Source: Actinomycetota bacterium | GTDB lineage: Bacteria > Actinomycetota > Humimicrobiia > Humimicrobiales > Humimicrobiaceae | Reading direction: 5' to 3' | NCBI GenBank assembly: GCA_028717265.1 | Contig: JAQUOE010000005.1 | Location: forward strand, 4,190 to 68,189 | Length of the DNA stretch: 64,000 nt | Shown: piece after piece, positions 14,549 through 61,014 of the stretch | How positions within the stretch are numbered: position 1 is the stretch's first letter | Layout of the letters: each line of letters starts with the position of its first letter | The notes under the pieces: generated by a model | What the model saw: only the letters and a program-made list of their open reading frames with translations | The model's database searches: none | Told to the model about the DNA's origin: nothing | Program-made: the position numbers and the translations under genes

Positions 14549-14648
14549 ATGAAAGGAAAAAAATAAAAGCTTATAACGGAAAAAATTGATATGACATACT
14601 GCTTATATATTATAATTTTGTAAAATAAAACAGAAAGGAAATAATGCG

Positions 14649-15130
14649 ATGATTACGAATATGCAAGGCATAGGTGCCAGGTTTGATATCGGAAAAGTAG
14701 GCAGCGGATACGATACTACGGATTCACTTGCTGGAAGATTTTCTGGCAGGCAATTAATCCGGAAGAGATTGGTATTGCGTTCCTATATGAAGGAGACACT
14801 GCTGCTACTTTAAACGGTCGAGAGAATGTCTTCTGCATTGCTGTCCAAAGTCCGGACAGTGGCGTAATCGCAAAGATAAAGGAAGCATTAACTCGAAGTG
14901 AGGCGTTTAAACAAGTCTGTGCGGCTCCTATGTTTTTTGGAGGCTCATCCTGTACGGTAGAACCACTGCTTGATGCCGGTGAAATTGATACTGCGGGAAA
15001 CCTTGTTGGTGATGCTGGTGCGTCTCGTTCTGCTCCTGGTGCAGTAAAGAAAGAGCATACGGCAGAGATGGATAAAGCAGGGGATACTAAGATCCCTGGA
15101 AGGAACAAGCCAGCTTCAAAACATTACTGA
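14649..15130 (+). pseudogene. frameshifted gene fragment of unknown function, compositionally atypical (GC-richer)
   Basis: Two consecutive reading frames (MITNMQGIGARFDIGK... then ...IGIAFLYEGDTAATLNGRENVFCIAVQSPD...KHY*) read through the same stretch. It is visibly GC-richer than its flanks and has an Ala/Gly/Asp-rich tail. Confidence 0.3.
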
Positions 15131-15422
15131 TACTATATAGAAGAAAATTTTTGATGTATTTAAATTTGACTATGGTCCTAAGAAGATAACTTAGAAGAAA
15201 TATATTTCATTTGACTTTTTATTTCTGTAAAATTTTATTTATAAATCTTTATTAAATGTTTTTCTTATCATGAAATCTGGATATTTTAAAAGAGCGCAAA
15301 GCATGATTTTTTGTTATAACTAAGAAACTTATTTAAACGAAAGGAAAATAAATATTATCTAAATATATCTTATCAGCAATGAAAAAAGCAAGATATGAAA
15401 TACTTAAAGATGATAATACCTT

Positions 15423-15890
15423 TTATGGAGAGATTCCTGGATTTGAAGGTATACTGTTTTTTACCCTATTTGATATATGAAATATTTTAATAATATCAAT
15501 ATTTTCTTTAATATCCTTAAGGATTTCTTCCTGTTCCTTATGGATATGGGAAACAAGAATAATCCTTCTTTTTATTACTCCATACTTACCAATACCCGGG
15601 TTAATGACTATAAGATTACAATATAGCGATTTCGCAATCCTTATAGTCTTATCAAAAATCCTGGAAAATAAATCAAGGTTGGAAAGGCTAAATTGTGAAA
15701 AGTGTATTGATGAAGCTTTAATATTGGTTTTCTTGAAAGGTTCAAGTATATCTTTTATATCAATTTTTAAGAATAATTCAGGATTACGAAAGGCAACTTC
15801 CACAAAGCCTAAATCTTTATAAACTCCAATAGCTTCAAACCAATTATATTTTCCAGTTTCAGGATAAGAAACTCGGACTGAGAATTTCAT
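15423..15890 (-). pseudogene. truncated xylose-isomerase-like TIM-barrel protein remnant
   Basis: 155-aa ORF resembles only the N-terminal half of a sugar-phosphate isomerase/epimerase TIM barrel. No continuation downstream. Confidence 0.35.
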
Positions 15891-16046
15891 GGTCTCCTTA
15901 AAATTCTGAAATCTTAATATATTAAAATTATTTTACTATCCTGTATATCCGCATACTCTTGAACCAGAATAAAAGTTTGAAAGTTCCAACTGTATGTGAT
16001 GTTTGCAATCGAATGGAGCAAATTTGGGCGAGGGCATCAGCCCGCA

Positions 16047-16651
16047 TTATCTACCAATGGTCTCACCATATTTTACCGTTATTTTCAGCGCAAGCCTTAT
16101 CATTTCACTTTCACCATATTTTCTGTGGTTATCTTTTTCCGATTCCTTCAAAAGGATATGACTTCCTTTCCCGGGGTTATCAGATGCAAATAAAATAGAT
16201 GCTCTTTTCATCCGAAAATGTCTTGCGACTGCAAATGTAGAAGCTGTTTCCATATCAACTGCTACGTATCCTTTATTGTACCAATTTTCAAGTTCCTTCT
16301 TTCCCTCTGCAAAAAGTGCAGAAGTAGTAAAAATCGGTCCATGTGTGCTACCAGTGAAGTTCACAAAACACCAAAAACATGGGTTATTTCGGAGGCTATT
16401 GGAGAACCATATACTGATGCGTATCCAATTGGGATGCCTTCAATATCTCTTATAAAGACATCTTCTGGCGCGCCGTTCGGTGATCCCACTTCAAAAATAT
16501 TTGAAAAGAAACTTTTATGCTTTGCATATTGTATCTTCAAATTTCTCGTTCCGCGAAGGAGCAAAACTTTTAGTATAAGCTTTTCTGAGATTCCTAACAT
16601 TGAAAGCCAATCGGATTTGCTTAATTCCTTTAACATCTTTATCTCTCTCAT
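16047..16651 (-). pseudogene. PNP_UDP_1-family nucleosidase/phosphorylase (MtnN/DeoD-like), frameshifted
   Basis: Two abutting ORFs (96 aa, then 105 aa with the VAVDMETAS...FASDNP signature) overlap by 4 nt. The combined length is still short of a normal family member. Confidence 0.5.
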
Positions 16652-16731
16652 TTCTCTAAATAAATAACAGATAATGTTTTAGAAGCGTAAAACTCCAATG
16701 ACAAAATAAATATCCAAAATAAATATCCATA

Positions 16732-16771
16732 TTGACAATCATAAAAAAAAGTTGTATTTTATTATTGTCAA
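16732..16771. promoter_or_regulatory. inverted repeat TTGACAAT-N24-ATTGTCAA upstream of cyclase gene (candidate operator)
   Basis: Seen directly. Also a tandem AAATAAATATCCA x2 immediately upstream. Confidence 0.25.
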
Positions 16772-16810
16772 ATAGCATTTAGCATTATCAAACTTTTTTA
16801 TATTATCTAA

Positions 16811-17479
16811 ATGTATAAATTATTGAGTTATTATGTAAAGACAAATAACCCTAAATATCCCGGTCACCCGGGTAATGAGTTTGAAAGTGTATTGAAAATA
16901 GAAAAAGGGAATATTTGTAATTCAACAAGAATAAAACTATTTACTCATAACGATACGCATATTGATTCGCCATATCATTACAATACAAATGGCATAAAAG
17001 TCCATGAAATTAGCCCCGATAATTTTTTCTATAACAAAGTAGCAGTTGCAAACCTGGAAGGTAAAATTGGTAAAGAAATTACTATTTCTGATGTGGGAAA
17101 AATATCAGATGATGCTGATATGCTAATGATCCATACAGGCATTTCCAGATATTGGATTAATTCTCCCGAGGAATATGTTGCAAAAGAAAATCAACCCTGG
17201 ATATCAAGGGAACTTACAGATTATTTGATAAGGGAGAGCAATATAAAGGGCATAAGTGTCGATTTTATGAGCGTCGATAATATAGATGATATCGAAAATA
17301 AAGATCCTTTCGTACATCGGGTTTTTTTAGGTATGAATGATTTATCGAAAATCATTTTTATTTATGAAAATGTCAATATTAAAACAATATTGAATGAGAG
17401 TGTAAAAAAGATATATGCGTTCCCGCTGTTACTTTATGGATTAGATGGTGCGCCTGTTACTATGGTAGCTGAAATTTAA
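16811..17479 (+). CDS. cyclase-family protein (kynurenine-formamidase-like metal hydrolase), paralogue 1
   Basis: YPGHPG...HNDTHIDSPYH matches the HxGTHxDxPxH metal-binding motif of the PF04199 'putative cyclase' family. Confidence 0.75.
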   Translation: MYKLLSYYVKTNNPKYPGHPGNEFESVLKIEKGNICNSTRIKLFTHNDTHIDSPYHYNTNGIKVHEISPDNFFYNKVAVANLEGKIGKEITISDVGKISDDADMLMIHTGISRYWINSPEEYVAKENQPWISRELTDYLIRESNIKGISVDFMSVDNIDDIENKDPFVHRVFLGMNDLSKIIFIYENVNIKTILNESVKKIYAFPLLLYGLDGAPVTMVAEI

Positions 17480-17516
17480 TGTGTTACTAATTAAAAACGA
17501 TTATTTTATTTAAAGA

Positions 17517-18764
17517 ATGAAAAGTATTAAATTACCGCAAGGCGGAATATTCGATAAAAAAGACATAAAGCTTGATTTCCCAAAAAACTGGGATGTGGAG
17601 GTTTGCGATTCTCCTGCAAATAAAATGAAGGCCATTACTTCAAAAAAAATGTCTGATTTAATTAATAGTCCGGTTGGGTCCAGGACTATCAGAGAAGCTG
17701 CCCGTGATAAAAGTAAAGTGGTACTAATTATCGAAGATATCAGCCGTGGTACCAGGATAGATAAAGTTATCAAATTTATTCTTAAAGAGTTGATTTCAAC
17801 AGGCATAAGAGAAGATGAAATTGAAATAATTTGTGCCGTCGGGGCCCATGGTGCGCATGATCGTATAGATTTCGTTAAAAAGTTAGGTAAGGAAGTAGTA
17901 GAAAAATTTCCTGTTTATAATCACAATCCTTTTTTTAATTGTAAATATATAGGAAAAACAAGTAGAGGAACAAGAGTTCTGATAAATCCCGAGGTTCTGG
18001 AATGTGATTTAAAAATATCTGTCGGTACCATTGTTCCGCACCCTTTATTCGGATTTAGCGGAGGAGGAAAAATAATCCTTCCGGGCATATCGTCCATAGA
18101 AACCATATACAGCAATCATATATTAGAATCAGATTCCTTAAAAGGGATAAAGGGAAATTTTGTTGATGGATTGGGAAGAATTGAAAATAATGTAATGCAG
18201 AGAGAAATGGAAGAAGTATGTGAAATGGTCGGGATTGATTTTCTGGTCAACGCACTCGTGGATTATAATGGTGAAATCGTTGATCTGGTAGCCGGTCATC
18301 CTATTTATGCACATAAGGAAGGAGTTAAAAAAGCGAAGGAGATTTATGGCACAAGTTATAAATCAAAAGCAGATTTAGTTATAGCTAATGCTAATTTTAA
18401 AATCAATGAAGCGAATATAGCTCTGGCATTTGGAAAAAAGAGTCTGAAGAATAACGGAGATATTGTAATAATAAACCATTCAAGAATAGGCCAGGTTACA
18501 CATTATTTGTGTAGTGGGTTTGGATATAATTATGGAGGTAAATTCTGGAGTAAAGATAAAGGTAATACCACCAAAAATATAAATAAAGTAATTTTATTCA
18601 ATCCTTATATTAATAAAATAGATGAGGATTGGTTCGGAGGATTTGGAAAAGTCAAGTGGGCATCCGAATGGCAGGAAGTTATAAATTTATTGGATTATGA
18701 TTCTGATAATAACGTTTCGGTTAATTTATTTACAGATGCAACAATTCAATATTTCTTGAATTAA
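17517..18764 (+). CDS. LarA-family (lactate-racemase-like, DUF2088) protein, paralogue 1
   Basis: 415 aa. Conserved GTIVPHPLFGFSGGGKIILPG block (the GFSGGxK lysine region of LarA) and histidines in AVGAHGAHD. Confidence 0.7.
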   Translation: MKSIKLPQGGIFDKKDIKLDFPKNWDVEVCDSPANKMKAITSKKMSDLINSPVGSRTIREAARDKSKVVLIIEDISRGTRIDKVIKFILKELISTGIREDEIEIICAVGAHGAHDRIDFVKKLGKEVVEKFPVYNHNPFFNCKYIGKTSRGTRVLINPEVLECDLKISVGTIVPHPLFGFSGGGKIILPGISSIETIYSNHILESDSLKGIKGNFVDGLGRIENNVMQREMEEVCEMVGIDFLVNALVDYNGEIVDLVAGHPIYAHKEGVKKAKEIYGTSYKSKADLVIANANFKINEANIALAFGKKSLKNNGDIVIINHSRIGQVTHYLCSGFGYNYGGKFWSKDKGNTTKNINKVILFNPYINKIDEDWFGGFGKVKWASEWQEVINLLDYDSDNNVSVNLFTDATIQYFLN

Positions 18765-18826
18765 AAATTTAACCAATGTAGTTTTTAAAAACTATTTAAT
18801 TATAAAATATTATAGGAGAGTTTATT

Positions 18827-19585
18827 TTGGAATTTGATGAGAAAGTAATAGCCATAACAGGAGGAGGAACAGGAATAGGCAGAGCCATTGCCACCGGCTT
18901 TGCTAAAGAGGGTGCAAAAGTTATTATTTCCGGGAGACGGGAAAAACCTTTAAAGGAAATAAAATCCTTGATTGAAAAAATCAATAAAAATATTGAATAT
19001 ATGCAGGCTGACGTTAGTGATTCAGCTATGGTCGATAATTTTATTAATAAAGCAATTAAGCTTTATGGAAGTCTGGATGTCTTTATAAACAATGCAGCTG
19101 TAAGTATAGGTAAAAGCATAGTGGACACTACCGATGAAGATCTGGATTATGTGCTTTCGGTAAATTTGAAGGGTTATTTTTACGGAATGAGATCTGCTAT
19201 AAAAAAGTTTATAGAACTTAATAAAAAAGGCGTGATTATAAATATATCGTCGATTCTTGGACTGAAGGGTCATTTATACAGAGGTGCTTACTGTGCATCA
19301 AAAGCGGCAATAAATAATCTAACCAGATGTGCCGCCATGGAATATGCCGATAAGAATATAAGAATAAATGCAATATGCCCAGGAGTAATTGAAACAGATA
19401 TGGTCAAAACGCAGTGGGATTCACCGCCGGATCCTGTTAAAGAAATGTTAAAAGGCATACCAATGAATAGGATGGGAAGTTGTGATGAAGTCGCAAAATT
19501 GGTTTTGTTTCTTTCTTCAGAATCTTCTTCCTATATAACGGGTTCTGTTATCACGGTTGACGGAGGTTGGTCTGCAGGAAAATAA
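18827..19585 (+). CDS. SDR-family oxidoreductase
   Basis: ITGGGTGIGRAIA, NNAAV, YCASKAA motifs. TTG start with an aggag RBS. Confidence 0.85.
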   Translation: MEFDEKVIAITGGGTGIGRAIATGFAKEGAKVIISGRREKPLKEIKSLIEKINKNIEYMQADVSDSAMVDNFINKAIKLYGSLDVFINNAAVSIGKSIVDTTDEDLDYVLSVNLKGYFYGMRSAIKKFIELNKKGVIINISSILGLKGHLYRGAYCASKAAINNLTRCAAMEYADKNIRINAICPGVIETDMVKTQWDSPPDPVKEMLKGIPMNRMGSCDEVAKLVLFLSSESSSYITGSVITVDGGWSAGK

Positions 19586-19651
19586 TACTATTGGAAGATG
19601 AATATTTAAAAATTTAGAAATGATTATCAAACAAATTTATTATATGGTCCG

Positions 19652-20401
19652 ATGAAAGTTTTAAGTAAATGTTTCGGCATAATTGATTTAATAAAAAGCA
19701 AAGACATGAATTTGACTGAAATATCAAAAGAATTAAATATTAATAAAAGCACCGCTTATTCAATATTAAAAGATTTACAAAAATTTGGTTATGTATATAA
19801 GCTCAACACTAATAAGAAATACAGGCTTGGCTATAAGTTTTTTGAGATTTACAACTATTTAATAACTAAGATAGATTTAATGAAGGAAGCAGAGAAAATA
19901 GCCGATGAGTTAAATATATTGACAAATGAGACGATACACGTTGGAACCTTTATCAGCTCTAAAGTATATAATATTTATAAAAAAGAGAGCGATAAGCCGA
20001 TAAGAGTATATATCGAAGGATTCAAAGAAGTACCAATATATTGTACAGGTATCGGTAAAGCTATATTAGCAAATCAAAAAAAAGAAAAGATAGATGAAAT
20101 ATTAAATAAACTGGAATTTAAAAAATATACTAAAAATACAATTACTGATATGGATGATTTGAGAAGAGAATTAGAAAAAATAAAAAATTCCGGATATGCA
20201 ATTGACAACGAAGAGCATCAGGAAAATGTATGTTGTATTGCAACTCCTGTTAGAAATTATACAAATGAAGTAGTGGCTTCGATAAGTATCACATCGATTA
20301 AATATAAAACAGATGTTGATTATTTAGTGGATAAATACAAAAGTTTAATAATGCAAAAGGGTTTCGAGCTGTCTTTAAGGTTAGGTTACAATAATGATTA
20401 A
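19652..20401 (+). CDS. IclR-family transcriptional regulator
   Basis: N-terminal wHTH (LTEISKELNINKSTAYSILKDLQKFGYV) and a C-terminal IclR effector domain. Confidence 0.75.
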   Translation: MKVLSKCFGIIDLIKSKDMNLTEISKELNINKSTAYSILKDLQKFGYVYKLNTNKKYRLGYKFFEIYNYLITKIDLMKEAEKIADELNILTNETIHVGTFISSKVYNIYKKESDKPIRVYIEGFKEVPIYCTGIGKAILANQKKEKIDEILNKLEFKKYTKNTITDMDDLRRELEKIKNSGYAIDNEEHQENVCCIATPVRNYTNEVVASISITSIKYKTDVDYLVDKYKSLIMQKGFELSLRLGYNND

Positions 20402-20424
20402 ATTGAGTAAGGATAAAAAATAAT

Positions 20425-21960
20425 ATGAAAGTAAAAGAAAATAACTCTCTGGAACTGAAAAATATCAGTAAGCTTTACCCGGGAACGATAGCTTTAAGAA
20501 ATATTAACTTATCGATAAGCGGGGGATATATCCATGGCATAATTGGGAAAAATGGAGCCGGAAAATCAACATTAATAAACATTATTTCCGGCCTGACTTA
20601 TCCTTCCGAAGGCCTCATTTCTATAAATGGAAAAGAATATCCAAGACTTAGTAGGATTCTGTCTAAAAAGGAAAATATTGCTGTAATTACTCAAGAACCG
20701 CAATTAGTTCCCGAACATACAATTGTTGAGGCTTTATTCAGCCCTAATTATATCCAGAAAAACGGTATTATAAACTGGAAAAAGATGAAAGAGAAATCTG
20801 TTTCAATGCTCAATTCACCATTATTAAAAAAAATAAAAGGTAAAAGGGCTATTAGAGATTTAACAATAAGTGAGCAGCAATTGCTATTGGTTTTTAAAGC
20901 CATTAACCTGGAAGGTGCCAATATAATAATTTTAGATGAAACGACTGCTTCGTTGACGCAGGACGATCAGAATCTTCTATATGAATTCATAATAAATCAG
21001 AAAAATATGGGCAAATCAATAATTTTTATTACCCATAGGATGCAGGAGATTTTGGATATATGCGATAAAGTTTCTGTATTGCGTGATGGTGAGCTCATTA
21101 ATACCATTTCAACCAAAAATCTTAATATGGGAGAATTGTCCTCTTATATTATTGGGGATAGCAAGTTGGCAGAGATCGATAGTACAGATAGGAAAAAAAC
21201 AAAAAAGAAGATTTCCGATGAAACTGTATTACAGCTGAAAGATTTAAGCAAAATGGGCGATTTTATGAATATCAATTTGGAAATTAAAAGAGGAGAGATT
21301 GTTGGTCTTGCCGGTTTGAGAGGTAGCGGAAGGACGGAGTTATTTAATTCAATTATTGGTATAAATAATTTTGATACGGGTGTCTTAAAAGTAAAGAATG
21401 TGGAGAAAAAATTTAAAAGTCCTTCCGAGGCATTGGCCGGTGGGATAGCATATCTACCGGAAGAGAGAGATAGGGAGGGTATAGTAAATGAATTGGGAGT
21501 AATGGATAACCTGGTTTTAAGCTGTTTAAAAAAACTATGCGTTTTTAAAAATGTGGGAATTATCAAAGATAGCAAAAAGCGAGATCTGGCAAAAAATTTA
21601 ATAAAAAAACTATCCATAAAAACTATCTCACTTGATCAAAAAGTAAAGGATTTAAGCGGCGGCAATAAACAAAAAGTTGTTGTGGGAAAAATACTTTCCG
21701 TTATGCCGGATATATTTATATTGGACGAGCCAACCAAAGGAATAGATATAGAAGCAAAAAATAGCATATTAAATATAATTGAAAAAGACTTAAGCAGGGA
21801 AGCCGGTATTTTAATTACCTCACCGGGACTTGGAGATCTTATAAAAATTTGCGATAGGATAATAGTTCTTTTAAATGGGGAAATAGTTGAGGAAGTTGAG
21901 AGTAATAAATTTAATGAAAATAAAATTTATTTAGCGATGCAGGGTAAAATAAATTCATGA
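20425..21960 (+). CDS. sugar ABC transporter ATP-binding protein with duplicated ABC domains (CUT2; RbsA/MglA-like)
   Basis: Walker A GKNGAGKST in domain 1, LSGGNKQKV signature in domain 2. 511 aa fused tandem ATPase. Confidence 0.85.
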   Translation: MKVKENNSLELKNISKLYPGTIALRNINLSISGGYIHGIIGKNGAGKSTLINIISGLTYPSEGLISINGKEYPRLSRILSKKENIAVITQEPQLVPEHTIVEALFSPNYIQKNGIINWKKMKEKSVSMLNSPLLKKIKGKRAIRDLTISEQQLLLVFKAINLEGANIIILDETTASLTQDDQNLLYEFIINQKNMGKSIIFITHRMQEILDICDKVSVLRDGELINTISTKNLNMGELSSYIIGDSKLAEIDSTDRKKTKKKISDETVLQLKDLSKMGDFMNINLEIKRGEIVGLAGLRGSGRTELFNSIIGINNFDTGVLKVKNVEKKFKSPSEALAGGIAYLPEERDREGIVNELGVMDNLVLSCLKKLCVFKNVGIIKDSKKRDLAKNLIKKLSIKTISLDQKVKDLSGGNKQKVVVGKILSVMPDIFILDEPTKGIDIEAKNSILNIIEKDLSREAGILITSPGLGDLIKICDRIIVLLNGEIVEEVESNKFNENKIYLAMQGKINS

Positions 21961-22006
21961 CCATATTTCAATAAATATAAATAAGAAAGTATTCAGGAGG
22001 ATTACT

Positions 22007-23023
22007 ATGTCAAAGTTTTCAAAAATTTCATTGTGGTTAATTGAAAATATGATTTGGGTCATACTGTTAGTGTATGTTGTGATAAATATTTTTGTTACAC
22101 CAAAATTTGTGACTTATGGAAACATCACTAACATATTCTACCATTCTTCCGTATTAAGCATGTTGGTTTTAGCACAGGGGCTGGTTCTTTTATTGGGCTA
22201 TATGGATCTTTCAATAGAATCTACATTGGCTTTCGCACCGGTGATATCAGTACTATTGCTGGTTAAGTATATTCCGTGGATTACACCTGTTGGGGCAATC
22301 GTCTTGACTTTGCTTCTGGGATGTTTGGTTGGTGCATTTAACGGAACAATGATTACAAGATTTGGTATAAACCCTTTTTTACAGACATTATCACTTTTGA
22401 TAATACTCAGGGGCATTGTAATCTTCCTTTTACCGGTGTCGATATTTGAATTTAGTGATGTTTATAGTGCACCTGGAGCTTTGAGAACAATATTTAATAT
22501 TCCGGTGGCTGTTTTCATCATGATATTCGTATTCATAATTTTTCATTTTGTTCTAAATAAAACAATATTTGGCAGGCACCTTATTGCCACAGGCGGAAAT
22601 AATCTATCAGCATATATTTCCGGTGTAAATACAAAAAGAGTAGTATTTATAACATTTGTTATTAGTGGATTGCTGGCCGCATTAGCAGGTCTTATAATGG
22701 CAGGCAGGCAACAGGCTGTGACAAATGCGATGGGTGATGGAATGGTTTTTGAATCTTTTGCCGGGGCTATTTTAGGTGGAGTTAGTTTAAAAGGAGGCGT
22801 AGGTAAAGTTTCCGGAATGCTGGGAGGAGTCTTGCTGTTGGGTGCGATAGATAACTCATTAAATCTACTGGGCATTAACGTATTTTTAATCTATGCATCC
22901 AAAGGATTATTAATATTTGTTGCAATTGTATTGGATCAGGCAAAAGTTAAGCTGAAAAATTATATTTATTACCGTGAAGATATGAGAAGGTTTAAAGAAA
23001 CTAAGGAAATAGCAGGTGTTTAA
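22007..23023 (+). CDS. sugar ABC transporter permease (CUT2; RbsC-like)
   Basis: Polytopic membrane protein of the BPD_transp_2 type. Confidence 0.8.
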   Translation: MSKFSKISLWLIENMIWVILLVYVVINIFVTPKFVTYGNITNIFYHSSVLSMLVLAQGLVLLLGYMDLSIESTLAFAPVISVLLLVKYIPWITPVGAIVLTLLLGCLVGAFNGTMITRFGINPFLQTLSLLIILRGIVIFLLPVSIFEFSDVYSAPGALRTIFNIPVAVFIMIFVFIIFHFVLNKTIFGRHLIATGGNNLSAYISGVNTKRVVFITFVISGLLAALAGLIMAGRQQAVTNAMGDGMVFESFAGAILGGVSLKGGVGKVSGMLGGVLLLGAIDNSLNLLGINVFLIYASKGLLIFVAIVLDQAKVKLKNYIYYREDMRRFKETKEIAGV

Positions 23024-23148
23024 AAGCTTTATAAAAGTATATTTATATATTTAAGATTTTTATGAAATTTATTTACAAATCATTATATGTGAATGGCGAA
23101 AGTAAAAGAAGAAAGTTATGGATTCCGGTTCTAAAAGCCATAAAACTT

Positions 23149-23181
23149 CTTACTCCCTGCAATCATGTTATCGGGAGTAAG
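23149..23181. repeat. hairpin CTTACTCCC-N15-GGGAGTAAG in the permease-SBP spacer
   Basis: Seen directly. The same stem sequence recurs in the hairpin downstream of the SBP gene (24591..24626). Confidence 0.3.
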
Positions 23182-23408
23182 ATTTGAAATAAAACAATTA
23201 TTTTAATAGTCTAATACATAGTATAGGGGGAGGTGGTAAAATTTTAATTAAAAATAATATTATTAAAAATAAGAGTGTATTAAAAGGAGATGATAGTAAG
23301 AATAAAAAAATGAGATTTGCTTTAAATTTGTGTAGCGCATGCTCCATTTAAAAACAAATCTCGAGGATATTATAATAATGGGTCACAATTAAATCAAGGA
23401 GTATCAAA

Positions 23409-24566
23409 ATGAAAAAGTTATTAATTACATTAGTTATAGTGTGCTTGGTTTCTTCCATAATATTTATAGGTTCAGGGTGTAAGGCAGAGGAAACTCAGGC
23501 AGAAGAAGTTGGAGAGGAAACTCAAGCAGAAGAAACTCCGGCAGAAGAAGTCACTGAGGCAGATATTGGTGATGAAGATATAGTGATCGGAGCCAGTTTC
23601 CGTGTATTGACCACAGAGTTCCATAATGCTATTAACGTTGCTGCAGAGAAAAAAGCTGAAGAGCTGGGAATAGGATATTTGAGTGTAACAAGCGGGAATT
23701 CTCCGGAGAAACAAATTTCACAAATGGAGAACTATATTTCTCTTGGAGTTGACGGATTTCTTCAGGGCGGAACTATTGATAATAGAGCCATTGTCCCGGG
23801 TATCGAGGCATTGAATGCAGCAAATATTCCAGTAGTTGGTGTTGATTCAAAGCCAGCTGGTGGAAAAATGGAATTGTTTATCAGTTTTGATAATGTAAGA
23901 GCTGCTGAACAGGCTGGTGAAGCGATGATCAAAGTATTAAAAGAGGAAAATGGCGGTGTGTTGCCTGAAAAAGGTGTGATAGTAGAAATTACCGGAGATT
24001 TGAGGGATACTGCGCAAGCTTTGAGGCATGAAGGTTTTGATAATGTCGTTAACGAAGATTTATATCCACAGTTTACAATTGTTCAGGGTGAAGGTAAATG
24101 GAATCCAGATGAGGCATTTCAAGTTACTTCTGATATATTCACAAAATATGGCGACGATATAATAGCCTTATATGCACATACAGACCAAATGTTTTCGGGT
24201 ATATTTTCAGCAATCGAACAGGCAGGTTATGATCCTGCAGATTTAGTGGTAACCAGTATGGATGCTAATTCAGCTGGTCTGACTTATATGGAAGAAGGTT
24301 TAATTGATGCATTACCTATTCAGGATGCTGCATCTTATGGCGCTCTGGCAGTAGAATATCTGTATAAGAAAATAATGGGAGAGGAGATGCCGGAAGTCGG
24401 TGATACAGTTACAGTAGAAGGCGAATTGTGGTCACCTGCCATGATAGTAGAAGATGAAGAAGGTGTATGCCCAATAATGCTTCTGAACAGTCCTATCGTT
24501 CCCTGGGATGTGCCTACAACTGATCCCAGAATATGGGGTAATATAGCAAGAGGAATAACCGAATAA
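23409..24566 (+). CDS. sugar ABC transporter substrate-binding lipoprotein (CUT2; RbsB-like PBP)
   Basis: Signal peptide with a FIGSGC lipobox, then an acidic EETQAEE repeat linker, then a type I periplasmic binding protein fold. Confidence 0.8.
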   Translation: MKKLLITLVIVCLVSSIIFIGSGCKAEETQAEEVGEETQAEETPAEEVTEADIGDEDIVIGASFRVLTTEFHNAINVAAEKKAEELGIGYLSVTSGNSPEKQISQMENYISLGVDGFLQGGTIDNRAIVPGIEALNAANIPVVGVDSKPAGGKMELFISFDNVRAAEQAGEAMIKVLKEENGGVLPEKGVIVEITGDLRDTAQALRHEGFDNVVNEDLYPQFTIVQGEGKWNPDEAFQVTSDIFTKYGDDIIALYAHTDQMFSGIFSAIEQAGYDPADLVVTSMDANSAGLTYMEEGLIDALPIQDAASYGALAVEYLYKKIMGEEMPEVGDTVTVEGELWSPAMIVEDEEGVCPIMLLNSPIVPWDVPTTDPRIWGNIARGITE

Positions 24567-24694: not shown

Positions 24695-25726
24695 ATGAAA
24701 GCTGTATTTTTGGAAGAACCAAAAAAAATATCAATACGGGAAATACCTGAGCCAACTTGTTCTGATGATAAGGTGATCATCAGAATAAAGAGGGTCGGGA
24801 TATGTGGAAGTGATGTACATTTTTTTAATGATGGCAGAGTAGGCGATTTCGTTATGAAAGAGCCTTACATATTGGGCCACGAGAGTTCAGGAGTAATAGA
24901 AGAAGTTGGAAAAAACGTTAAAAATTTTAAAGTTGGTGATCGTGTAAGCATAGAGCCGGGTGTTCCTTGTTATAAATGTAATTTCTGCCTGGAAGGCAGA
25001 TATAATTTGTGTAAAAAAGTCGTATTTATGGATGTTCCTGGATGTGACGGAGCTTTAAGAGAATTGATAGAATATGATCCTAATTTTATTTATAAAGTAT
25101 CAGATAATGTAAGCCTTACGCAGGCAGCTCTGGTTGAGCCCCTTGCAGTTGGATATTTTGCTATATCAAAAGCAAAAATATTACCGGGGGACAAAATTTT
25201 TATATTGGGGTCCGGACCAATTGGTATAGCTATTTTAGAGATGGCAAGGATTGCCGGTGCTTCTGAAATATTTATTTCAGATATAAATGAATATAGATTG
25301 AAAGTTGCGAAGGAGCATGGTGCAAAATATACATTAAATCCCGGTAAGATAGATATAGAAAAATTTGTTTCGGACAAAACAGAAGGCCTCGGGGCAGATG
25401 TTGCAATCGAAGCTGCGGGTTCAGAAGAAACTATCAGGCAATCTTTAAGAGTTGTAAAAAGTGGCGGTAAAGTAGTATGGGTAAGTGTAGGAAAAGAGGA
25501 AATAACTATTCCTTTTCAAAAGATTATTTTTAATGAGCTAAGAGTGGAAGGAATAAATAGATATGCTAATTCATATAAAAGAGTTATTGAATTATTGGAA
25601 AATGGATTAGTTAATTTCGAATCATATGTATCAAAAAGAATTAAATTAGAAAACGTAGAGGAAGCTTTTAAGATTGCAAATGATCCTGAAGCTGAAGTTA
25701 TGAAAATAGTTATAGAAATAGATTAG
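24695..25726 (+). CDS. zinc-dependent MDR dehydrogenase (sorbitol/threonine-DH-like)
   Basis: GICGSDVHFF, GHESSG and CYKCNFC motifs, GSGPIGIA Rossmann. Confidence 0.8.
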   Translation: MKAVFLEEPKKISIREIPEPTCSDDKVIIRIKRVGICGSDVHFFNDGRVGDFVMKEPYILGHESSGVIEEVGKNVKNFKVGDRVSIEPGVPCYKCNFCLEGRYNLCKKVVFMDVPGCDGALRELIEYDPNFIYKVSDNVSLTQAALVEPLAVGYFAISKAKILPGDKIFILGSGPIGIAILEMARIAGASEIFISDINEYRLKVAKEHGAKYTLNPGKIDIEKFVSDKTEGLGADVAIEAAGSEETIRQSLRVVKSGGKVVWVSVGKEEITIPFQKIIFNELRVEGINRYANSYKRVIELLENGLVNFESYVSKRIKLENVEEAFKIANDPEAEVMKIVIEID

Positions 25727-25785: not shown

Positions 25786-26556
25786 TTGAAAGAATTTTTT
25801 GACATTAAAGATTATTGCGTAATTATTACGGGTGCAAATAGGGGCCTGGGGAAAGAAATGGCATTAGCATTTGCGGATTGCGGAGCAAATGTAGTAATAA
25901 CTTGCAGAGACCTGAACTCAGTTGCAGAGTTAGTTAAGGTTATTGAAAAGAAAAATGTGCAAGTATTACCAATAAAAATGGATGTGAGAAATGAGGATGA
26001 AATCAATCAGATGGTTGAGGATGTCATGGAAAAATTTGGAAAAATTGATGTTCTGGTTAATAATGCTGCTATTTGTCAGACCGTAGAAGTGGAAAATATG
26101 AAGACAAGTGATTGGAATGAGACAATAGATGTTAATTTAACCGGTGTTTTCCAGGTTTCAAAAGCTGTCGGGAGGAAAATGATTCTACGAAAAAAAGGAT
26201 CAATTATAAATATATCATCAATTTCTGGATTTATTATGAATCATCCTCAGAAGCATACTGCATATTGTGTATCCAAAGCCGGCGTTATTATGCTTACGAA
26301 AGGTATGGCTGCCGAATGGGCCGAATATAATATAAGAGTCAATAGTGTCGCACCGGGTTACACAACCGGAGGGATGGCTAAGCCATCAGTAGAAGAGGGT
26401 GGAGAAATGGCTGAAAGATGGCGGTCATTAATACCTATGCATAGATTTGGAAAACCTGGTGAACTAAGCGGTATTTTAATTTATCTTGCTTCGGAAGCTT
26501 CGACGTATACCACAGGAGCTACTTTTTTGATAGATGGTGGTTTTACTGTTTGGTAA
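25786..26556 (+). CDS. SDR-family oxidoreductase (KduD/gluconate-5-DH-like)
   Basis: ITGANRGLGKEMA, NNAAI, YCVSKAG motifs. Confidence 0.85.
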   Translation: MKEFFDIKDYCVIITGANRGLGKEMALAFADCGANVVITCRDLNSVAELVKVIEKKNVQVLPIKMDVRNEDEINQMVEDVMEKFGKIDVLVNNAAICQTVEVENMKTSDWNETIDVNLTGVFQVSKAVGRKMILRKKGSIINISSISGFIMNHPQKHTAYCVSKAGVIMLTKGMAAEWAEYNIRVNSVAPGYTTGGMAKPSVEEGGEMAERWRSLIPMHRFGKPGELSGILIYLASEASTYTTGATFLIDGGFTVW

Positions 26557-26600: not shown

Positions 26601-28268
26601 ATGAAATTTGGTGATGATAACAGGCGTATACTTGAAGGAGATGAAGGAGCCCAATTAAGGTCTTTGTATAAAAGCATGGGTTATACCAATGACGATTTAA
26701 GAAGGCCAATGATTGGAGTAGTCAATTCGTGGAATACAGCATGTTCCGGTCAATTTAATCTGCGCGCAGTTGCAGAATCTGTAAAAAATGGGATTTATAG
26801 AGCTGGAGGTACGCCAGTCGAGTTCGGTACCATAGGGCCATGTGATGGTATTGGAATAGGTAACAATGGAATGAAATATATTTTACCGTCCAGGGACCTG
26901 ATCGCACAGAGTGTAGAAGTTATGGCATCAGCACATTCATTGGATGCTGTAGTTTTATTGGGAAGCTGCGATAAGATAGTGCCCGGATTATTAATGGCAG
27001 CCGCAAGGTTAAATATACCCGCGATTTTAGTGCCCGGTGGTCCAATGCTGCCCGGTAAATTTGAAAATAAATTTATTGATGTAAATCAGGTAATGATTAA
27101 TTTAGGTGCACTTTATTCAGGAAAATTGACAAAAGAAAAATTTAAAGAATTAGAGAGGGTTGCATGCCCTACTTCAGGTTCCTGCCAGATGATGGGTACA
27201 GCAAATACTTTTTGTAGTTTTTCAGAAGCTATTGGTATGAGTTTACCATCGAGCGCAGCTATACCTGCTGTTTATTCTGAAAGATTACATTCGGCGCAAG
27301 ACGCTGGGAAAAAAATACTGGAATTATTCCAAAAGAATATTAGACCAAGAGACATAATGACCAAAGAAGCAATAATCAATGGCATAAGAGTTGCGATGGC
27401 AGTAGGGGGTTCCACTAATTTAATATTGCATACAATGGCTCTGGTAAATTCTCTGGATATAGATTTTAAAATTGATGAATTTAATGATATCAGTGACAGT
27501 ACGCCTTATTTATGTTCTCTGGCACCTGCCGATAATTCAAAAACCATGATTGATTATTATTTTGCAGGAGGTGCCGCTGTTGTTATGAAGGAATTGGAGA
27601 GTTTACTTGATTTAAATTGTATTACAGTAAGCGGTAATACACTGAAGGAAAACTTGAAGGTTATTATAAATAAGGACAATGAAATGATAAGACCGATCAG
27701 CCGGTCTTTTAGAAATACAGGTGGTCTGGCGATTTTGAGAGGTAACCTTGCTCCGGATAGTGCGGTTACGAGACCCGCCGTGATTGCAAAAGAATGCAGA
27801 CAAATGTGCGGTCCGGCAAAAGTATTTAATTCGGAAAATGAGTTTTTTAAAGCAATTAATAAAAGTGCCATTAAAGAGGGCGATGTCATAGTTGTGAGAT
27901 ATGAGGGTCCCAGAGGTGGTCCGGGAATGAGAGAGATGTTCATACCTCTGGAAATTATAAAGGGTATGGGTCTTGAGGGAAAAGTAGCCATTATTACTGA
28001 TGGCCGTTTTTCCGGTTCTAATTCTGGCAGCTTTGTCGGACATATTTGTCCTGAAGCTGCCGATGGTGGCCCGATAGCTTCCGTGAAAGATGGCGATATT
28101 ATCGACATTGATATAGATAAAAAAACAATAAATATGAGAGTCTCTGATGATGAGATAAAAAATAGACTTAAAAATATTTCCGAAGTAAAAAGGGATATAG
28201 GCAACGGCTACTTATCATTTTATGTAAAACATGTGAGTCCATCCTCAAAAGGTGCGGTTTTAATATAG
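26601..28268 (+). CDS. IlvD/EDD-family dehydratase (dihydroxy-acid / sugar-acid dehydratase)
   Basis: CDGIGIG and LLGSCDKIVPGLLMAAARLNIPAILVPGGPM motifs, with C-terminal ITDGRFSG. Confidence 0.85.
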   Translation: MKFGDDNRRILEGDEGAQLRSLYKSMGYTNDDLRRPMIGVVNSWNTACSGQFNLRAVAESVKNGIYRAGGTPVEFGTIGPCDGIGIGNNGMKYILPSRDLIAQSVEVMASAHSLDAVVLLGSCDKIVPGLLMAAARLNIPAILVPGGPMLPGKFENKFIDVNQVMINLGALYSGKLTKEKFKELERVACPTSGSCQMMGTANTFCSFSEAIGMSLPSSAAIPAVYSERLHSAQDAGKKILELFQKNIRPRDIMTKEAIINGIRVAMAVGGSTNLILHTMALVNSLDIDFKIDEFNDISDSTPYLCSLAPADNSKTMIDYYFAGGAAVVMKELESLLDLNCITVSGNTLKENLKVIINKDNEMIRPISRSFRNTGGLAILRGNLAPDSAVTRPAVIAKECRQMCGPAKVFNSENEFFKAINKSAIKEGDVIVVRYEGPRGGPGMREMFIPLEIIKGMGLEGKVAIITDGRFSGSNSGSFVGHICPEAADGGPIASVKDGDIIDIDIDKKTINMRVSDDEIKNRLKNISEVKRDIGNGYLSFYVKHVSPSSKGAVLI

Positions 28269-28386: not shown

Positions 28387-29268
28387 ATGAAGAAAATAAA
28401 AGGTGTAGTACCCCCGATGATTACACCGTTTAAAAAAAATGGGGATTTAGATGTTGAGAACTTGAAAAAACTCATCAGGTTTTTAAAAAATGAAGTTGAT
28501 GGATTGTTTATAACCGGTTCTTATGGCTCGGGAGCCCTGATGAATTTAGAAGAGAGAATGAAAGTAGCTGAAATAACATCAGAAATATTGGAAGGTAAGA
28601 TACCATTTATCACTATGGTCGGGACTACGAATAATAGAGACTCGGTTGAGCTGGCAAAACATTCAGAGAGGTCCGGTGCGACCGCAGTAGCAGCTACCGG
28701 TCCTTATTATTATAAGCACAACAAAGAAGATTTAATGAGATTTTATACAGATTTAATAGAATCTGTTAGTATTCCGGTTTATTTATATAATAATCCAAAG
28801 TTTCAGGGTTATGAAATTAGCTTATCAACTATAAAAGAATTAAAGAAAATAGGTTTAAGAGGTATAAAAGACGCAACTTTTGATATCCTGGTTCATGCCA
28901 ACTACCACAGGGTTTTAAAGGACAATGAATTTGATATTGTTTTAGGAACGGAAGCAATGTGGCTGGCCGCAAGAACCCTGGGTTGCGAAGCTTTTATACC
29001 GGGACTCGCAAATGTGTTTCCTGAAATAAATAGAAAAATGTATAAAGAGGGTATGTGTAACAATATTGAAGCATGCAGGGAAACTCAATTTATGGTAAAT
29101 AGAATCCGCGAGATAATGTACCTGGCAAGATCCACACAATTAGCGGTATATGCCATGTTAGACATAAGAGGTATTGTTAAATGCTATCCCAGAGCGCCGT
29201 TCGTGGAGGCGACAGGAGAAGAAAAAAAGAAAATAAAGGTTGAATTAAAGAAAATAAAAATGATTTAA
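28387..29268 (+). CDS. DHDPS/NAL-family class I aldolase (2-keto-3-deoxy-acid aldolase candidate), paralogue 1
   Basis: VPPMITPF..., GLFITGSYGSG, and the Schiff-base Lys context GIKDATFD. Confidence 0.8.
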   Translation: MKKIKGVVPPMITPFKKNGDLDVENLKKLIRFLKNEVDGLFITGSYGSGALMNLEERMKVAEITSEILEGKIPFITMVGTTNNRDSVELAKHSERSGATAVAATGPYYYKHNKEDLMRFYTDLIESVSIPVYLYNNPKFQGYEISLSTIKELKKIGLRGIKDATFDILVHANYHRVLKDNEFDIVLGTEAMWLAARTLGCEAFIPGLANVFPEINRKMYKEGMCNNIEACRETQFMVNRIREIMYLARSTQLAVYAMLDIRGIVKCYPRAPFVEATGEEKKKIKVELKKIKMI

Positions 29269-29314: not shown

Positions 29315-30337
29315 ATGTATGCAGCTATAGACACAGGTACTACAAATACAAGGATTTATATTATTGATGATAATTATAGGGTAGTAAATAAGGCTGAAAA
29401 AAAAATTGGCGTTAGAGAAACTGCCATTACAGGTTCAAAAAAGAAACTCAAAGAAGGACTGTTATCATGTTTTGAAGATGCAGTAAGAAATTCCGGAGTT
29501 GGTACCAGTGATATAAAATTTATTTTAATCTCCGGTATGTTAACTTCAGAAATTGGCTTATTGGATATTCCTCATTTAAAAGCGCCTGTTGGGATCCAGG
29601 AGCTGGTTAGTAATGTTAAAATCATAAAGGATACAGAAATTTTTCCGGTTAGCATACCATTAATATTTATTCCCGGTATAAAAAATAATATAAAAGATAT
29701 GAATATTACAAATATTCGAAAAATAGATTTTATGAAAGGCGAAGAGACACAGGTATTTGGGATTCTTCAAAAGCTGAAACCTGAGTTACCATGTAACGTA
29801 ATATTTTTCAGCTCACACACAAAACTAATTCATATAAGTATAGGAGAAAAGATTGCAGGTAGTATCACTACACTCAGCGGGCAGATTTACGAAGCGATAA
29901 AAAAGCAAACGTTTATAGGGAAAAGTATTACTCATAACGATTATGGCGTGGTTGATGATTTCTTTTCTGCAAAACTTCTAAAAATTGCGCTGGAAAGTGT
30001 CGAAAATGCTGGATTTTTACGTTCATTGATGATGCCGCGTTTCATGGAAGTATTAATGGATACCACGAGTTACGAAAGGGAATTTTTCGTAAATGCAGTG
30101 ATCTCATCGGAAGACATAAAAATTTTGCATGAAGCAAAAAAATTAATGGGTTTTGATATTAATAATGCCCCGGTTATTCTTATCGGAAACAAAACAAGAT
30201 GCAGAATTTTTAAAGAGTTACTTAAGATTAATAAATTAAATCTTTCAGTTCGAAGTATTTGTGATAATGATTCAATAGATGAGTTCGTCGTTGAAGGTGG
30301 GAAAATGGTCGTTAAGCAAATGATCGATAGACCATGA
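29315..30337 (+). CDS. 2-dehydro-3-deoxygalactonokinase-like (DgoK family) sugar-acid kinase
   Basis: N-terminal AIDTGTTNTRIY and IFIPGI...MKGEETQVFGIL align with the DgoK AIDWGSTNLRAW / IIPGL...MRGEETQLIG blocks. Confidence 0.65.
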   Translation: MYAAIDTGTTNTRIYIIDDNYRVVNKAEKKIGVRETAITGSKKKLKEGLLSCFEDAVRNSGVGTSDIKFILISGMLTSEIGLLDIPHLKAPVGIQELVSNVKIIKDTEIFPVSIPLIFIPGIKNNIKDMNITNIRKIDFMKGEETQVFGILQKLKPELPCNVIFFSSHTKLIHISIGEKIAGSITTLSGQIYEAIKKQTFIGKSITHNDYGVVDDFFSAKLLKIALESVENAGFLRSLMMPRFMEVLMDTTSYEREFFVNAVISSEDIKILHEAKKLMGFDINNAPVILIGNKTRCRIFKELLKINKLNLSVRSICDNDSIDEFVVEGGKMVVKQMIDRP

Positions 30338-40538: not shown

Positions 40539-40573
40539 CATGGCAAACGATGAGTTTTTTCAAGGAGGAAAAA

Positions 40574-41691: not shown

Positions 41692-41788
41692 TAAAATACG
41701 AATGTAGAATTAGGAAAAAGATATCCGGAAAGAAATCTATACAAATTTTATTGAATTGAATAAGAATTATAATAAGGAAAATTTATAG

Positions 41789-42954: not shown

Positions 42955-43150
42955 CGGCTTATTTTAAGAGTTACTATGTAAAAAATTTATTTACCGATTC
43001 TATAGTTAATATCTTTGTAATAACCTTAATTTGCATTGTTAAATGTTGCCAGTATGATTTGTTCAATAAAAAATAATATTCTATTCAGTATTGAAATTTT
43101 TAAATTATTAGATAGTTATTGTCTATAAACAATATCAGGGAGGAATGTAA

Positions 43151-59685: not shown

Positions 59686-61014
59686 TTGGAATTTATTAAA
59701 AAGATATTAATTATAGAGAATGATTTTATGATTTTTCAAGAGGATTTAAAAAAGGGACTGAATGATTGCGAGATAGATAATCTTGTAAAAAAATCATTAG
59801 CGAAATTTAACAAATTAAATAAAATACTTATTATACATCCGGATTCCACAAGAAATGATTTTACGGATAAAATTGTTAAAGCCATATTAAATAGTATTGA
59901 AGAAAGAGAATATGAACACATTCACTTTTTAAACGCCTGTGGGACTCATGGGATTATGACAAAAAAAGAATTTTTGAACAAATTAGGTTTGGAAACAATT
60001 GGAAAAAACATGTTTTTTTTTAATCATATATTTAATGACAAAAGTAATCTCCGAGTTGTTGGTGAAGTTCCTTCTTCTTTTATTTCGAAAATAACTAATG
60101 GAAATTTAAAGCAGGAGATACCAGTTACTATAAATAAAATGATTCTTGAAAACTATGATGTCATCCTGACAATTGGGGGGACAGTACCTCATGAGGCAGC
60201 AGGTTTTTCCGGAGGACTGAAAATTTTTTTTCCGGGCGTTTCCGGTTCAGAAGTGATAGATCTCTTTCACTGGGTCGGCGCATTGATTGGGATTCCAAAT
60301 ATTATAGGGACAATTAATAATTATGTGAGAGAAGTGATTAACGTAGCTTCCAAATTCATATTCAAGGTGCTAAAAAAACCGGTACTATGTTTTAATATGA
60401 TTTATGATGGAACAGGCGATAAAGTAAGACCTTTAGGACTATATATAGATTATGGTTTTAAGGGTTTTATAAATGCTTATAAAAAAGCGGCTTCTGCCAG
60501 TTTCAAGATTCATATCAAATATTTGGATAAACCCATAGATATTGCTGTGCAAGAAATTCCGAAATATTATAGTTCCGTTTGGACAGCTGCAGGAAAAAGT
60601 TCTTCAAAGTTGCAAAGAAAAGGGGTCATAAAAGGGGGGGGAGCAATAATTATTTATGGTCCTCATATAAAATGTTTTCATTCCAATAAATACATGGACG
60701 AAATGATAAAACTTATCGGATATCATTGCAAAGATTTCGTATTAGATTTTCTAAAAAAAAATCCGGAGTTTTCAAGGAATATAGCTTCTCATGTAATTAA
60801 TGTAAACGGACCCGGATATTTTGATCGTTTATCTAAAAAGGAAATATCTGATTTGAAGATTATCTTAGCTACCTCGATATCGAAAGATGTTTGTGAGTCA
60901 GTTAATCTTGGTTATATTGACCATGAAACTCTAAGAAGAGAAGACTTTCAGACATCTGAAAAATTATGGATAAAAGAAGGGGGAAGGTATCTTTATAACT
61001 TAAAAGGCAGATAG
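59686..61014 (+). CDS. LarA-family (DUF2088) protein, paralogue 2
   Basis: GTVPHEAAGFSGGLKIFFPG block homologous to paralogue 1 and the LarA lysine region. 442 aa. Confidence 0.65.
   Translation: MEFIKKILIIENDFMIFQEDLKKGLNDCEIDNLVKKSLAKFNKLNKILIIHPDSTRNDFTDKIVKAILNSIEEREYEHIHFLNACGTHGIMTKKEFLNKLGLETIGKNMFFFNHIFNDKSNLRVVGEVPSSFISKITNGNLKQEIPVTINKMILENYDVILTIGGTVPHEAAGFSGGLKIFFPGVSGSEVIDLFHWVGALIGIPNIIGTINNYVREVINVASKFIFKVLKKPVLCFNMIYDGTGDKVRPLGLYIDYGFKGFINAYKKAASASFKIHIKYLDKPIDIAVQEIPKYYSSVWTAAGKSSSKLQRKGVIKGGGAIIIYGPHIKCFHSNKYMDEMIKLIGYHCKDFVLDFLKKNPEFSRNIASHVINVNGPGYFDRLSKKEISDLKIILATSISKDVCESVNLGYIDHETLRREDFQTSEKLWIKEGGRYLYNLKGR

Follow-up and report, generated by a model that had tools for sequence, protein, structure and literature searches.

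The LarA homologue and its gene cluster

The 64 kb stretch of DNA analysed here (the window), from a metagenome-assembled genome (MAG) of an Actinomycetota bacterium, encodes at 17517..18764 a homologue of the nickel-pincer nucleotide (NPN) enzyme LarA (protein record MDD5621874.1). The gene starts 38 bp after that of a cyclase-fold hydrolase, and the gene of a first SDR oxidoreductase (SDR 1) starts 63 bp downstream of it. An IclR-family regulator and a complete CUT2 importer follow, the latter made up of a fused ATPase with two nucleotide-binding domains (NBDs), a BPD_transp_2 permease and a Peripla_BP_4 binding protein. A sequence-only reading of this DNA had named these genes and their order; Pfam and the translations of the open reading frames (ORFs) agree with it on position, plus strand and family throughout. 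It had also ended the cluster at 24566. The genes up to that point are as it named them, but the end is not: the seven genes through the binding protein are followed by five more in the same direction, and the run goes on to 30337 (Table 1). Intergenic gaps within the run are mostly 24-142 bp, the exception being 386 bp before the binding-protein gene.

A Pfam scan places Lar_N (PF09861) in the product of 17517..18764 with an E value of 1.6e-50. An AlphaFold (AF2) model built on an alignment of homologues has a mean pLDDT of 91.2, and its full-length matches in Foldseek (~415 residues) are closed, cofactor-bearing LarA structures, with template-modelling (TM) scores of 0.82-0.84 against holo-LarA 5HUQ (5HUQ_B), 8EZF and 9EIA. 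By sequence, the best match in the PDB is the malate racemase Mar2 (6D6Z; E 1.3e-37), with lactate racemases next.

Across 40 full-length homologues, which share 38-53% identity with the protein, D74, R77, H111, H175, K185, H201, N291, K295, E298 and H329 are invariant. A profile made from these sequences was aligned to Lactobacillus plantarum LarA over residues 26-418, and the first six residues correspond, with identical spacing, to LarA D72, R75, H108, H174, K184 and H200. The equivalents of the NPN-tethering Lys184, the Ni-ligand His200, Arg75 and Asp72 are thereby all kept, as are both catalytic histidines of LarA (His108 and His174). The lysine stands in the motif PHPLFGFSGGGK185; the sequence-only reading had singled out this GFSGGxK region and the catalytic His and Lys for alignment, and H111, H175 and K185 are all present at the exact LarA spacing. 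Because the invariant residues are matched in spacing and the model matches LarA over its full length, the product is a complete LarA-fold enzyme with its cofactor-binding residues and both catalytic histidines intact.

The best promoter-like site upstream of the cluster lies inside an inverted repeat (Table 1) whose pattern occurs once in the window, where chance alone would give 0.01 occurrences; the site may serve the cluster as promoter or operator, in the latter case perhaps for the IclR protein. A promoter and terminator scan gave nothing above shuffled expectation, and Rfam has no match within the window. Within the gap between the permease and binding-protein genes (23024-23408) are a promoter-like site (23347-23376) and a 9-bp stem-loop, CTTACTCCC-N15-GGGAGTAAG; the binding-protein gene may be transcribed from a promoter of its own. 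Upstream of the cluster, 14600-16800 contains short ORFs alone, on both strands; a 105-residue PNP_UDP_1 fragment (16047-16364, minus strand) abuts a short ORF in a different frame, and the region probably holds a decayed nucleoside phosphorylase gene.

Table 1 Features in and around the gene cluster, and the second LarA homologue of the window
Feature	Position	Strand	Basis
Promoter-like site TTGACA-17-TATTTT inside 8-bp inverted repeat TTGACAAT-N24-ATTGTCAA (candidate)	16732..16771	+	Pattern scan
Cyclase-family (PF04199, kynurenine-formamidase fold) metal hydrolase	16811..17479	+	Pfam, E 5.6e-18
LarA homologue, Group 23, 415 residues, putative NPN-dependent C2 racemase/epimerase	17517..18764	+	Pfam, residues, fold
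SDR oxidoreductase 1	18827..19585	+	Pfam; generic NCBIfam 'glucose 1-dehydrogenase' subfamily model alone passed, 233.8 bits against cutoff 215
IclR-family regulator, nearest KdgR	19652..20401	+	Pfam; KdgR model 168 bits, under cutoff 275
CUT2-type ABC ATPase, two NBDs	20425..21960	+	Pfam; best models AraG/AlsA/XylG/RbsA, all under cutoff
CUT2 permease, BPD_transp_2	22007..23023	+	Pfam
Lipoprotein sugar-binding protein, Peripla_BP_4, RbsB-like	23409..24566	+	Pfam; lipobox GSGC, strong ribosome-binding site
Zn-dependent alcohol/polyol dehydrogenase, IolM / L-idonate 5-dehydrogenase / Tdh-like	24695..25726	+	Pfam; no NCBIfam model at cutoff
SDR oxidoreductase 2, gluconate 5-dehydrogenase / KduD-like	25786..26556	+	Pfam; SDR conserved in sister clusters
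IlvD/Edd-family dehydratase (2,3-dihydroxy-acid / sugar-acid dehydratase)	26601..28268	+	Pfam
DHDPS-family pyruvate aldolase (2-keto-3-deoxygluconate (KDG) / 2-keto-3-deoxy (KD)-sugar-acid aldolase-like)	28387..29268	+	Pfam
DgoK-like KD-sugar-acid kinase	29315..30337	+	PF05035, E 2.7e-28; no NCBIfam match
Second LarA homologue, GntE2 (T. maritima TM0442 / PDB 4NAR) type, D-gluconate/D-mannonate 2-epimerase-like	59686..61014	+	Lar_N, E 4e-25

Group 23 assignment and the altered helix 11

LarA and all of its characterised relatives bear Tyr294-Gln295-x-x-Lys298 in helix 11; the family of the window protein has none of these residues. Their equivalents are missing in the HMMER pairwise alignment, the profile alignment and the ungapped register alike, N291, K295 and E298 stand invariant in their place in the 40 sequences, and the alignments show a helix-11 loop 4-5 residues shorter than that of LarA. 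Lys298 is counted as catalytic by Desguin et al. 2020 (PMC7583248). Lys295 and Glu298 are the probable replacement for the missing Lys298 motif.

None of the curated NCBIfam models of characterised LarA groups is passed by the protein. The equivalog models compared were LAR, MAR LarAH5/6, LarAH10, LarAH14-16 and the hexonate epimerase LarAH18, and the scores against cutoff (bits) were 225/500, at best, then 218/540, 186/462, 180/460, 33/740 and 27/500. Among characterised proteins its sequence is closest to the racemases for malate and lactate and to LarAH10, and not to the hexonate epimerases. The comparison with characterised LarA homologues envisaged in the sequence-only reading has a different outcome for each of the two homologues in the window: that at 59686..61014 is of GntE2 type, whereas that at 17517..18764 belongs in Group 23 as defined by Desguin et al. 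(PMC7583248).

Membership of Group 23 is assigned on sequence motifs, because a motif search of Dataset S2 of that study returned the Group 23 entry Deba_0774 (Desulfarculus baarsii) alone. Deba_0774 and the family of the window protein have in common DDxxRxTR, GxHGA, YNHN, PHxxxGFxGGGK, NAxxKxxE and GQVTHYL. The Table S3 signature of Deba_0774 includes D, R, H, H, A, Q, K, H and, for Y294, Q295, V297 and K298, the residues A, I, I, L (PMC7583248). This published signature agrees with the window protein, which retains D, R, H, H, K and H but has no Y294, Q295 or K298.

Group 23 is listed with 'unknown function' (PMC7583248). The sole member assayed is LarAH23 of Isosphaera pallida, in an impure preparation, and its seven assays were all negative: lactate, hydroxyisovalerate, hydroxyisocaproate, malate, hydroxyglutarate, phenyllactate and gluconate/mannonate (PMC7583248). 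The published neighbourhood analysis, covering 15 members and three genes on each side, gave no associated neighbour family (PMC7583248). Literature searches found no paper on LarAH23 later than the 2020 study and none on DUF2088 in sugar-acid clusters.

Two other assignments were considered and rejected. Group 22 is tempting through its published context (SDR, IlvD, IclR and TRAP transporter), but its sequence motifs are unrelated: its signature has Ala at the D72 position and ITAGSRG...KPHTDF, where the window protein has Asp and PHPLFGFSGGGK, and the Group 22 sequences Rxyl_2987 and Bcoa_1745 differ from it throughout. A GntE-type identity (LarAH19/20) was set aside on the loop after the catalytic His, which is Pro-Leu in the window protein and Glu-Val/Ser in GntE (PMC7583248), and on a weak match to 4NAR (E 1.5e-06) confined to residues 65-238.

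Comparison with known enzymes places the protein as follows. It shares with Group 23 (Deba_0774, LarAH23) the diagnostic motifs and residue signature; it differs from the group at large in belonging to a small PHP(L/F)FGF sub-branch whose genes are linked with that of a cyclase-fold hydrolase, with a CUT2 importer and with genes for KD sugar acids. With Mar2 (6D6Z/7S91, LarAH6) and LarA (5HUQ) it has identical NPN-binding and His residues and a fold matching with TM up to 0.84, yet only 21-26% identity, NCBIfam scores of 225, 186 and 180 bits against cutoffs of 500, 462 and 460, and a shorter helix-11 loop without YQxxK. GntE2 (TM0442, 4NAR, LarAH20) is of the same superfamily, with the same cofactor residues and the same logic of a C2 epimerase feeding a sugar-acid pathway; against it stand a Foldseek identity to 4NAR of 16%, Pro-Leu for Glu-Ser/Val, and the missing Lys298. 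Group 23 members adjoining UxaA or MR_MLE dehydratases have a Thr-Ala loop. The hydrophobic Pro-Leu-Phe sequence at this point in the window protein is a hint that the substrate carries little hydroxylation on the side chain beside C2, as would a 3-deoxy or deoxy-aldonate.

Gene context in the window, in sister clusters and across Group 23

The linkage of cyclase, LarA homologue, SDR and CUT2 ABC genes recurs in two metagenomic contigs of other organisms, with protein identities of 43-52% to the window. The GC content of the three contigs differs (0.33 in the window, 0.45 in L088, 0.39 in L096). On L088, a soda-lake sediment contig, the order is CUT2 ABC, cyclase, Fe-dependent alcohol dehydrogenase (Fe-ADH), LarA homologue P0002, SDR and C_GCAxxG. 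P0002 is the nearest homologue of the window protein (52% identity), and the two pair in a neighbour-joining tree. The L088 cyclase is 45% identical to the product of 16811..17479, as against ~29% to the two other cyclase paralogues of the window, and the L088 SDR is 46% identical to SDR 2. On L096 the order is IclR, HpcH aldolase, CUT2 ABC, cyclase, GldA-type Fe-ADH, LarA homologue P0124, Eda-type 2-keto-3-deoxy-6-phosphogluconate (KDPG) aldolase, KDG-kinase-like PfkB, 2-Hacid_dh, three SDRs and C_GCAxxG. P0124 is 51% identical to the window protein and the L096 cyclase 43% to the window cyclase. In both contigs the cyclase orthologue (43-45%) stands one gene upstream of the LarA homologue, and the SDRs are 46-48% identical to SDR 2.

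The LarA homologues of the window, L088 and L096 have in common the loop PHP(L/F)FGF, where relatives in other contexts carry PHPFNGF, PHPLTGF, PHPQVGF or PHPTAGF. The kinases and aldolases are not orthologous between clusters, being DgoK-like and DHDPS-type in the window and PfkB and Eda/HpcH in L096. The two sets are functionally equivalent, which supports a common end point in which a 2-keto-3-deoxy sugar acid is cleaved to pyruvate. An alignment scan of metagenomes for the sub-branch returned three loci, two of them known before; a homologue search with the cyclase returned three proteins alone, the one informative contig stopping at the cyclase gene; and the neighbourhoods of the relatives P0003, P0005, P0009 and P0126 gave no informative context. 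Routes through L-gulonate, L-idonate or 5-ketogluconate, through 3-deoxy-aldonate, and through 2-ketogluconate kinase/reductase were considered and are not asserted, as the three clusters have no one unambiguous enzyme set in common. Both sister clusters end in a C_GCAxxG_C_C protein; the window has one within 41290-47748, a stretch that also encodes an ARMT1-like damage-control phosphatase, an FGGY kinase and two SDRs and contains three glyoxalase-fold genes.

A one-genome-per-species scan found at least 573 relatives of the window protein, mostly in Dehalococcoidia, Desulfobacterota, Bacillota and Bathyarchaeia, and 80 loci were analysed for neighbours within 6 kb. No single neighbour family is conserved across them, and a cyclase-family neighbour occurs at none of the 80. 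Dehydratases recur: a UxaA-type sugar-acid dehydratase lies directly upstream at eight loci, MR_MLE dehydratases are found at six and IlvD-type enzymes at two. HpcH aldolase with Ldh_2 (6-7 loci), PTE-family hydrolases (5), TRAP transporters (7) and Liv-type ABC systems (7-9) also occur. Further recurrent neighbours are an indolepyruvate-type 2-oxoacid:ferredoxin oxidoreductase (IOR) alongside an FrhB-like protein and a GlcD-type FAD oxidase (10-14), and an aldehyde:ferredoxin oxidoreductase (AOR; 7).

Single-locus look-ups gave an operon IclR-GlcD-GlcF-FrhB-IOR-LarAH (LarAH being the LarA homologue), a pair of D-2-hydroxyacid dehydrogenase (2-Hacid_dh) and LarAH, and, in Dethiobacter, a Group 23 gene in a 2-hydroxyacyl-CoA dehydratase context. 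In the cultured Dethiosulfatibacter aminovorans DSM 17477 (L097, 8317-14651) an IlvD-type dehydratase lies immediately upstream of the Group 23 gene, and the pair is followed by a four-subunit 2-oxoacid:ferredoxin oxidoreductase (OFOR), beta-oxidation genes and KdgT and GntP permeases. IlvD-type dehydratases are likewise adjacent to or near the Group 23 gene in L006 and L081; these three enzymes are 43-47% identical to the dehydratase at 26601..28268. Homologues of the window IclR protein are also present in L096, L006 and L081. The neighbouring enzymes act on C2 of 2-hydroxy or 2-oxo carboxylic acids, which argues that Group 23 still works on 2-hydroxy acids despite its altered helix 11.

The cyclase-fold protein next to the LarA homologue belongs to the fold family of kynurenine formamidase and isatin hydrolase (PF04199) and keeps the HxxTHxDxPxH metal site. 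It differs from kynurenine formamidase in matching KynB at an E value of 1e-8 only, in scoring 55 bits against a cutoff of 223 on the arylformamidase model, and in lying in a carbohydrate cluster; presumably it acts on a pathway intermediate that is a lactone or an amide. Searched against the PDB, the aldolase, the binding protein and the cyclase-fold protein had family-level matches alone, from which no ligand can be inferred. The window has three PF04199 paralogues (16811-17479, 33640-34305 and 40550-41248), all with HxxTHxDxPxH and each inside a carbohydrate or 2-hydroxy-acid cluster, the third coming after genes for a D-2-hydroxyacid dehydrogenase and a DHDPS-family aldolase. The pattern suggests that PF04199 has a carbohydrate-related role not yet described. 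The second paralogue, a Pyr_redox_2 gene and a DUF1667 gene lie between the copies of an exact 1494-bp direct repeat (30478-31971 and 34396-35889), which duplicates a DAO+BFD (GlpA-like) FAD oxidoreductase gene and stems either from a very recent event or from an error of assembly.

The second LarA homologue, whose presence the sequence-only reading had noted, aligns with 4NAR over residues 33-442 (E 3.1e-133) and keeps the motifs D..R, GTHG, PHEAAGFSGGLK and LFHW, comprising all cofactor and catalytic residues. By these similarities it is classed as a putative gluconate 2-epimerase of GntE2/4NAR type; the T. maritima GntE2 is experimentally NPN-dependent (PMC7583248). The gene is part of a different cluster (54344-63085), which encodes a CUT1 ABC system, a Zn-dependent alcohol dehydrogenase, two xylose-isomerase-like TIM-barrel proteins and a 2-Hacid_dh. 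Its start codon is probably downstream of the TTG, because the TTG-start form is absent from the protein collection. Two fragments, an FCD (GntR C-terminal) domain without helix-turn-helix at 53705-54091 and a 133-residue GFO_IDH_MocA N-terminal domain at 63276-63677, are possible pseudogenes or frameshifts.

Proposed function of the LarA homologue

We propose, with moderate confidence, that the product of 17517..18764 is an NPN-dependent enzyme whose most likely reaction, following the LarA mechanism, is inversion of the C2 hydroxyl in a 2-hydroxy acid derived from a sugar. The sequence-only reading had suggested a sugar-acid or hydroxy-acid epimerisation coupled to uptake, and this is the best-supported reading of the locus, given (i) the invariant residues and LarA fold; (ii) the dehydratase, kinase and aldolase of the cluster; (iii) the linkage seen in two other organisms. 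A monosaccharide-type solute would enter through the CUT2 importer and be oxidised by an SDR or alcohol dehydrogenase. The adjacent cyclase-fold metal hydrolase would open the lactone (or amide) so formed to yield a 2-hydroxy acid, and the LarA homologue would turn its 'wrong' C2 epimer into the form that the later enzymes accept. In the predicted active site, His111 or His175 would take the hydroxyl proton while hydride passed to the pyridinium C4 of NPN (proton-coupled hydride transfer). Lys185 would tether the cofactor and His201 would be its ligand, and re-reduction of the 2-keto intermediate from the opposite face would complete the inversion. The IlvD-type dehydratase, KD-acid kinase and pyruvate aldolase would act downstream, and the KdgR-like IclR protein would regulate the cluster. 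The GntE enzymes, which epimerise D-mannonate and D-gluconate at C2, provide the precedent (PMC7583248).

Several observations weigh against this proposal. The Tyr294/Gln295/Lys298 motif is missing, and groups without Lys298 may not invert a stereocentre and may run another hydride-mediated reaction (Desguin et al. 2020, PMC7583248). The one assayed member of Group 23 was inactive on all the 2-hydroxy acids offered. The Pro-Leu-Phe loop is hydrophobic. IOR, GlcD or AOR accompany 27 of the 80 loci, and most Group 23 loci lie outside sugar contexts. The L096 cluster has no dehydratase. Literature searches found no PF04199 enzyme described as a lactonase. Finally, among window ORFs of at least 120 residues there is no Pfam match to LarB (AIRC), LarC (DUF111) or LarE-type PP-loop families, as the sequence-only reading had remarked for the 64 kb. 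A classical hexonate substrate is disfavoured by the hydrophobic loop, the missing Lys298 motif, the negative LarAH23 assays and the P0124 cluster, which contains no dehydratase.

The chief contender, which we nevertheless think unlikely, is that the protein racemises some small 2-hydroxy acid of simple structure, such as lactate, glycerate or 2-hydroxybutyrate, and is not a sugar-acid epimerase upstream of the dehydratase. Such an enzyme would tidy up what the pathway yields once aldol cleavage has taken place, for instance lactate formed from lactaldehyde or glycerate formed from glyceraldehyde. The Pro-Leu-Phe loop is indeed nearer to the Phe-Phe of lactate racemases than to the polar loop of GntE, and the closest characterised relatives are racemases of this kind; lactate racemases, however, keep the three helix-11 residues that the window protein lacks, and the I. 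pallida enzyme had no lactate racemase activity (PMC7583248). LarA homologues preferring glycerate and 2-hydroxybutyrate are known (PMC11770544), and many Group 23 genes accompany GlcD, IOR or 2-hydroxyacyl-CoA dehydratase, enzymes of non-sugar 2-hydroxy or 2-oxo acids. Against a role at the end of the pathway is the position of the window gene at the head of the cluster, tightly between cyclase and SDR, with linkage to the cyclase in three organisms.

More speculative, and in our judgement improbable, is a reading in which the cyclase-linked sub-branch (the window, P0002 and P0124) forms an undescribed two-enzyme module. A kynurenine-formamidase-fold enzyme opening a sugar-derived lactone would here be paired with an NPN enzyme that inverts C2 with an Asn291/Lys295/Glu298 substrate grip unlike that of any characterised LarA, the substrate being perhaps a 3-deoxy or poorly hydroxylated aldonic acid; or the NPN enzyme would be a non-racemase hydride shuttle acting on something other than a classical 2-hydroxy acid.

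It is also distinctly improbable that NPN serves another hydride-transfer reaction, or a substrate without the usual carboxylate grip, such as a neutral sugar, a lactone or a keto-sugar undergoing isomerisation. The idea arises because the carboxylate-binding Lys298, Gln295 and Tyr294 are replaced by Asn291, Lys295 and Glu298, with no Lys298 equivalent in three alignment registers or in the Table S3 signature and with the replacements invariant in 40 sequences. Desguin et al. raise this possibility for groups without Lys298 (PMC7583248), the importer is of neutral-monosaccharide type, and the assayed Group 23 member was inactive on seven 2-hydroxy acids (PMC7583248). Yet Arg77, the equivalent of Arg75, and both catalytic histidines are kept, Lys295 may take over carboxylate binding from a different position, and the neighbours of the family are overwhelmingly enzymes of 2-hydroxy and 2-oxo carboxylic acids.

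That the protein works without NPN, or has no function because the organism is unable to make the cofactor, is very improbable: larB/C/E-type genes are indeed lacking in the 64 kb and no PP-loop (SGGxDS) LarE-like ORF lies beside 80-82 related LarA loci, but the NPN-contacting residues are invariant at 38-53% identity, which implies selection for cofactor binding, and the window also encodes a second NPN-type enzyme, of GntE2 type, whose residues are intact. Since both proteins keep the cofactor residues, the organism has two proteins under selection to bind NPN. Missing larB/C/E in the window is ordinary and no puzzle in itself, because LarA homologues are commonly unlinked from larBCE: linkage is seen for ~20-33% of members in the groups that show any, and for none in Group 23 (Table S1, PMC7583248).

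The window gene joins a LarA group that is already catalogued though uncharacterised; it does not reveal a system of a new kind, and the picture of what LarA homologues are stays unchanged by it. Group 23 is a large branch of LarA homologues without an assigned function, and the only assays of it are negative; the conserved sugar-acid-type context described here is not reported in the papers searched. The window and its two sister contigs provide a defined gene set (importer, cyclase-fold hydrolase, dehydrogenases, KD-acid kinase and aldolase) from which substrates can be chosen, and Dethiosulfatibacter aminovorans is a tractable system in which to find the substrate of Group 23. If C2 epimerisation of a sugar-derived acid is the true function, it would add one more reaction to the repertoire of NPN enzymes and give a PF04199 hydrolase its first role in carbohydrate metabolism.

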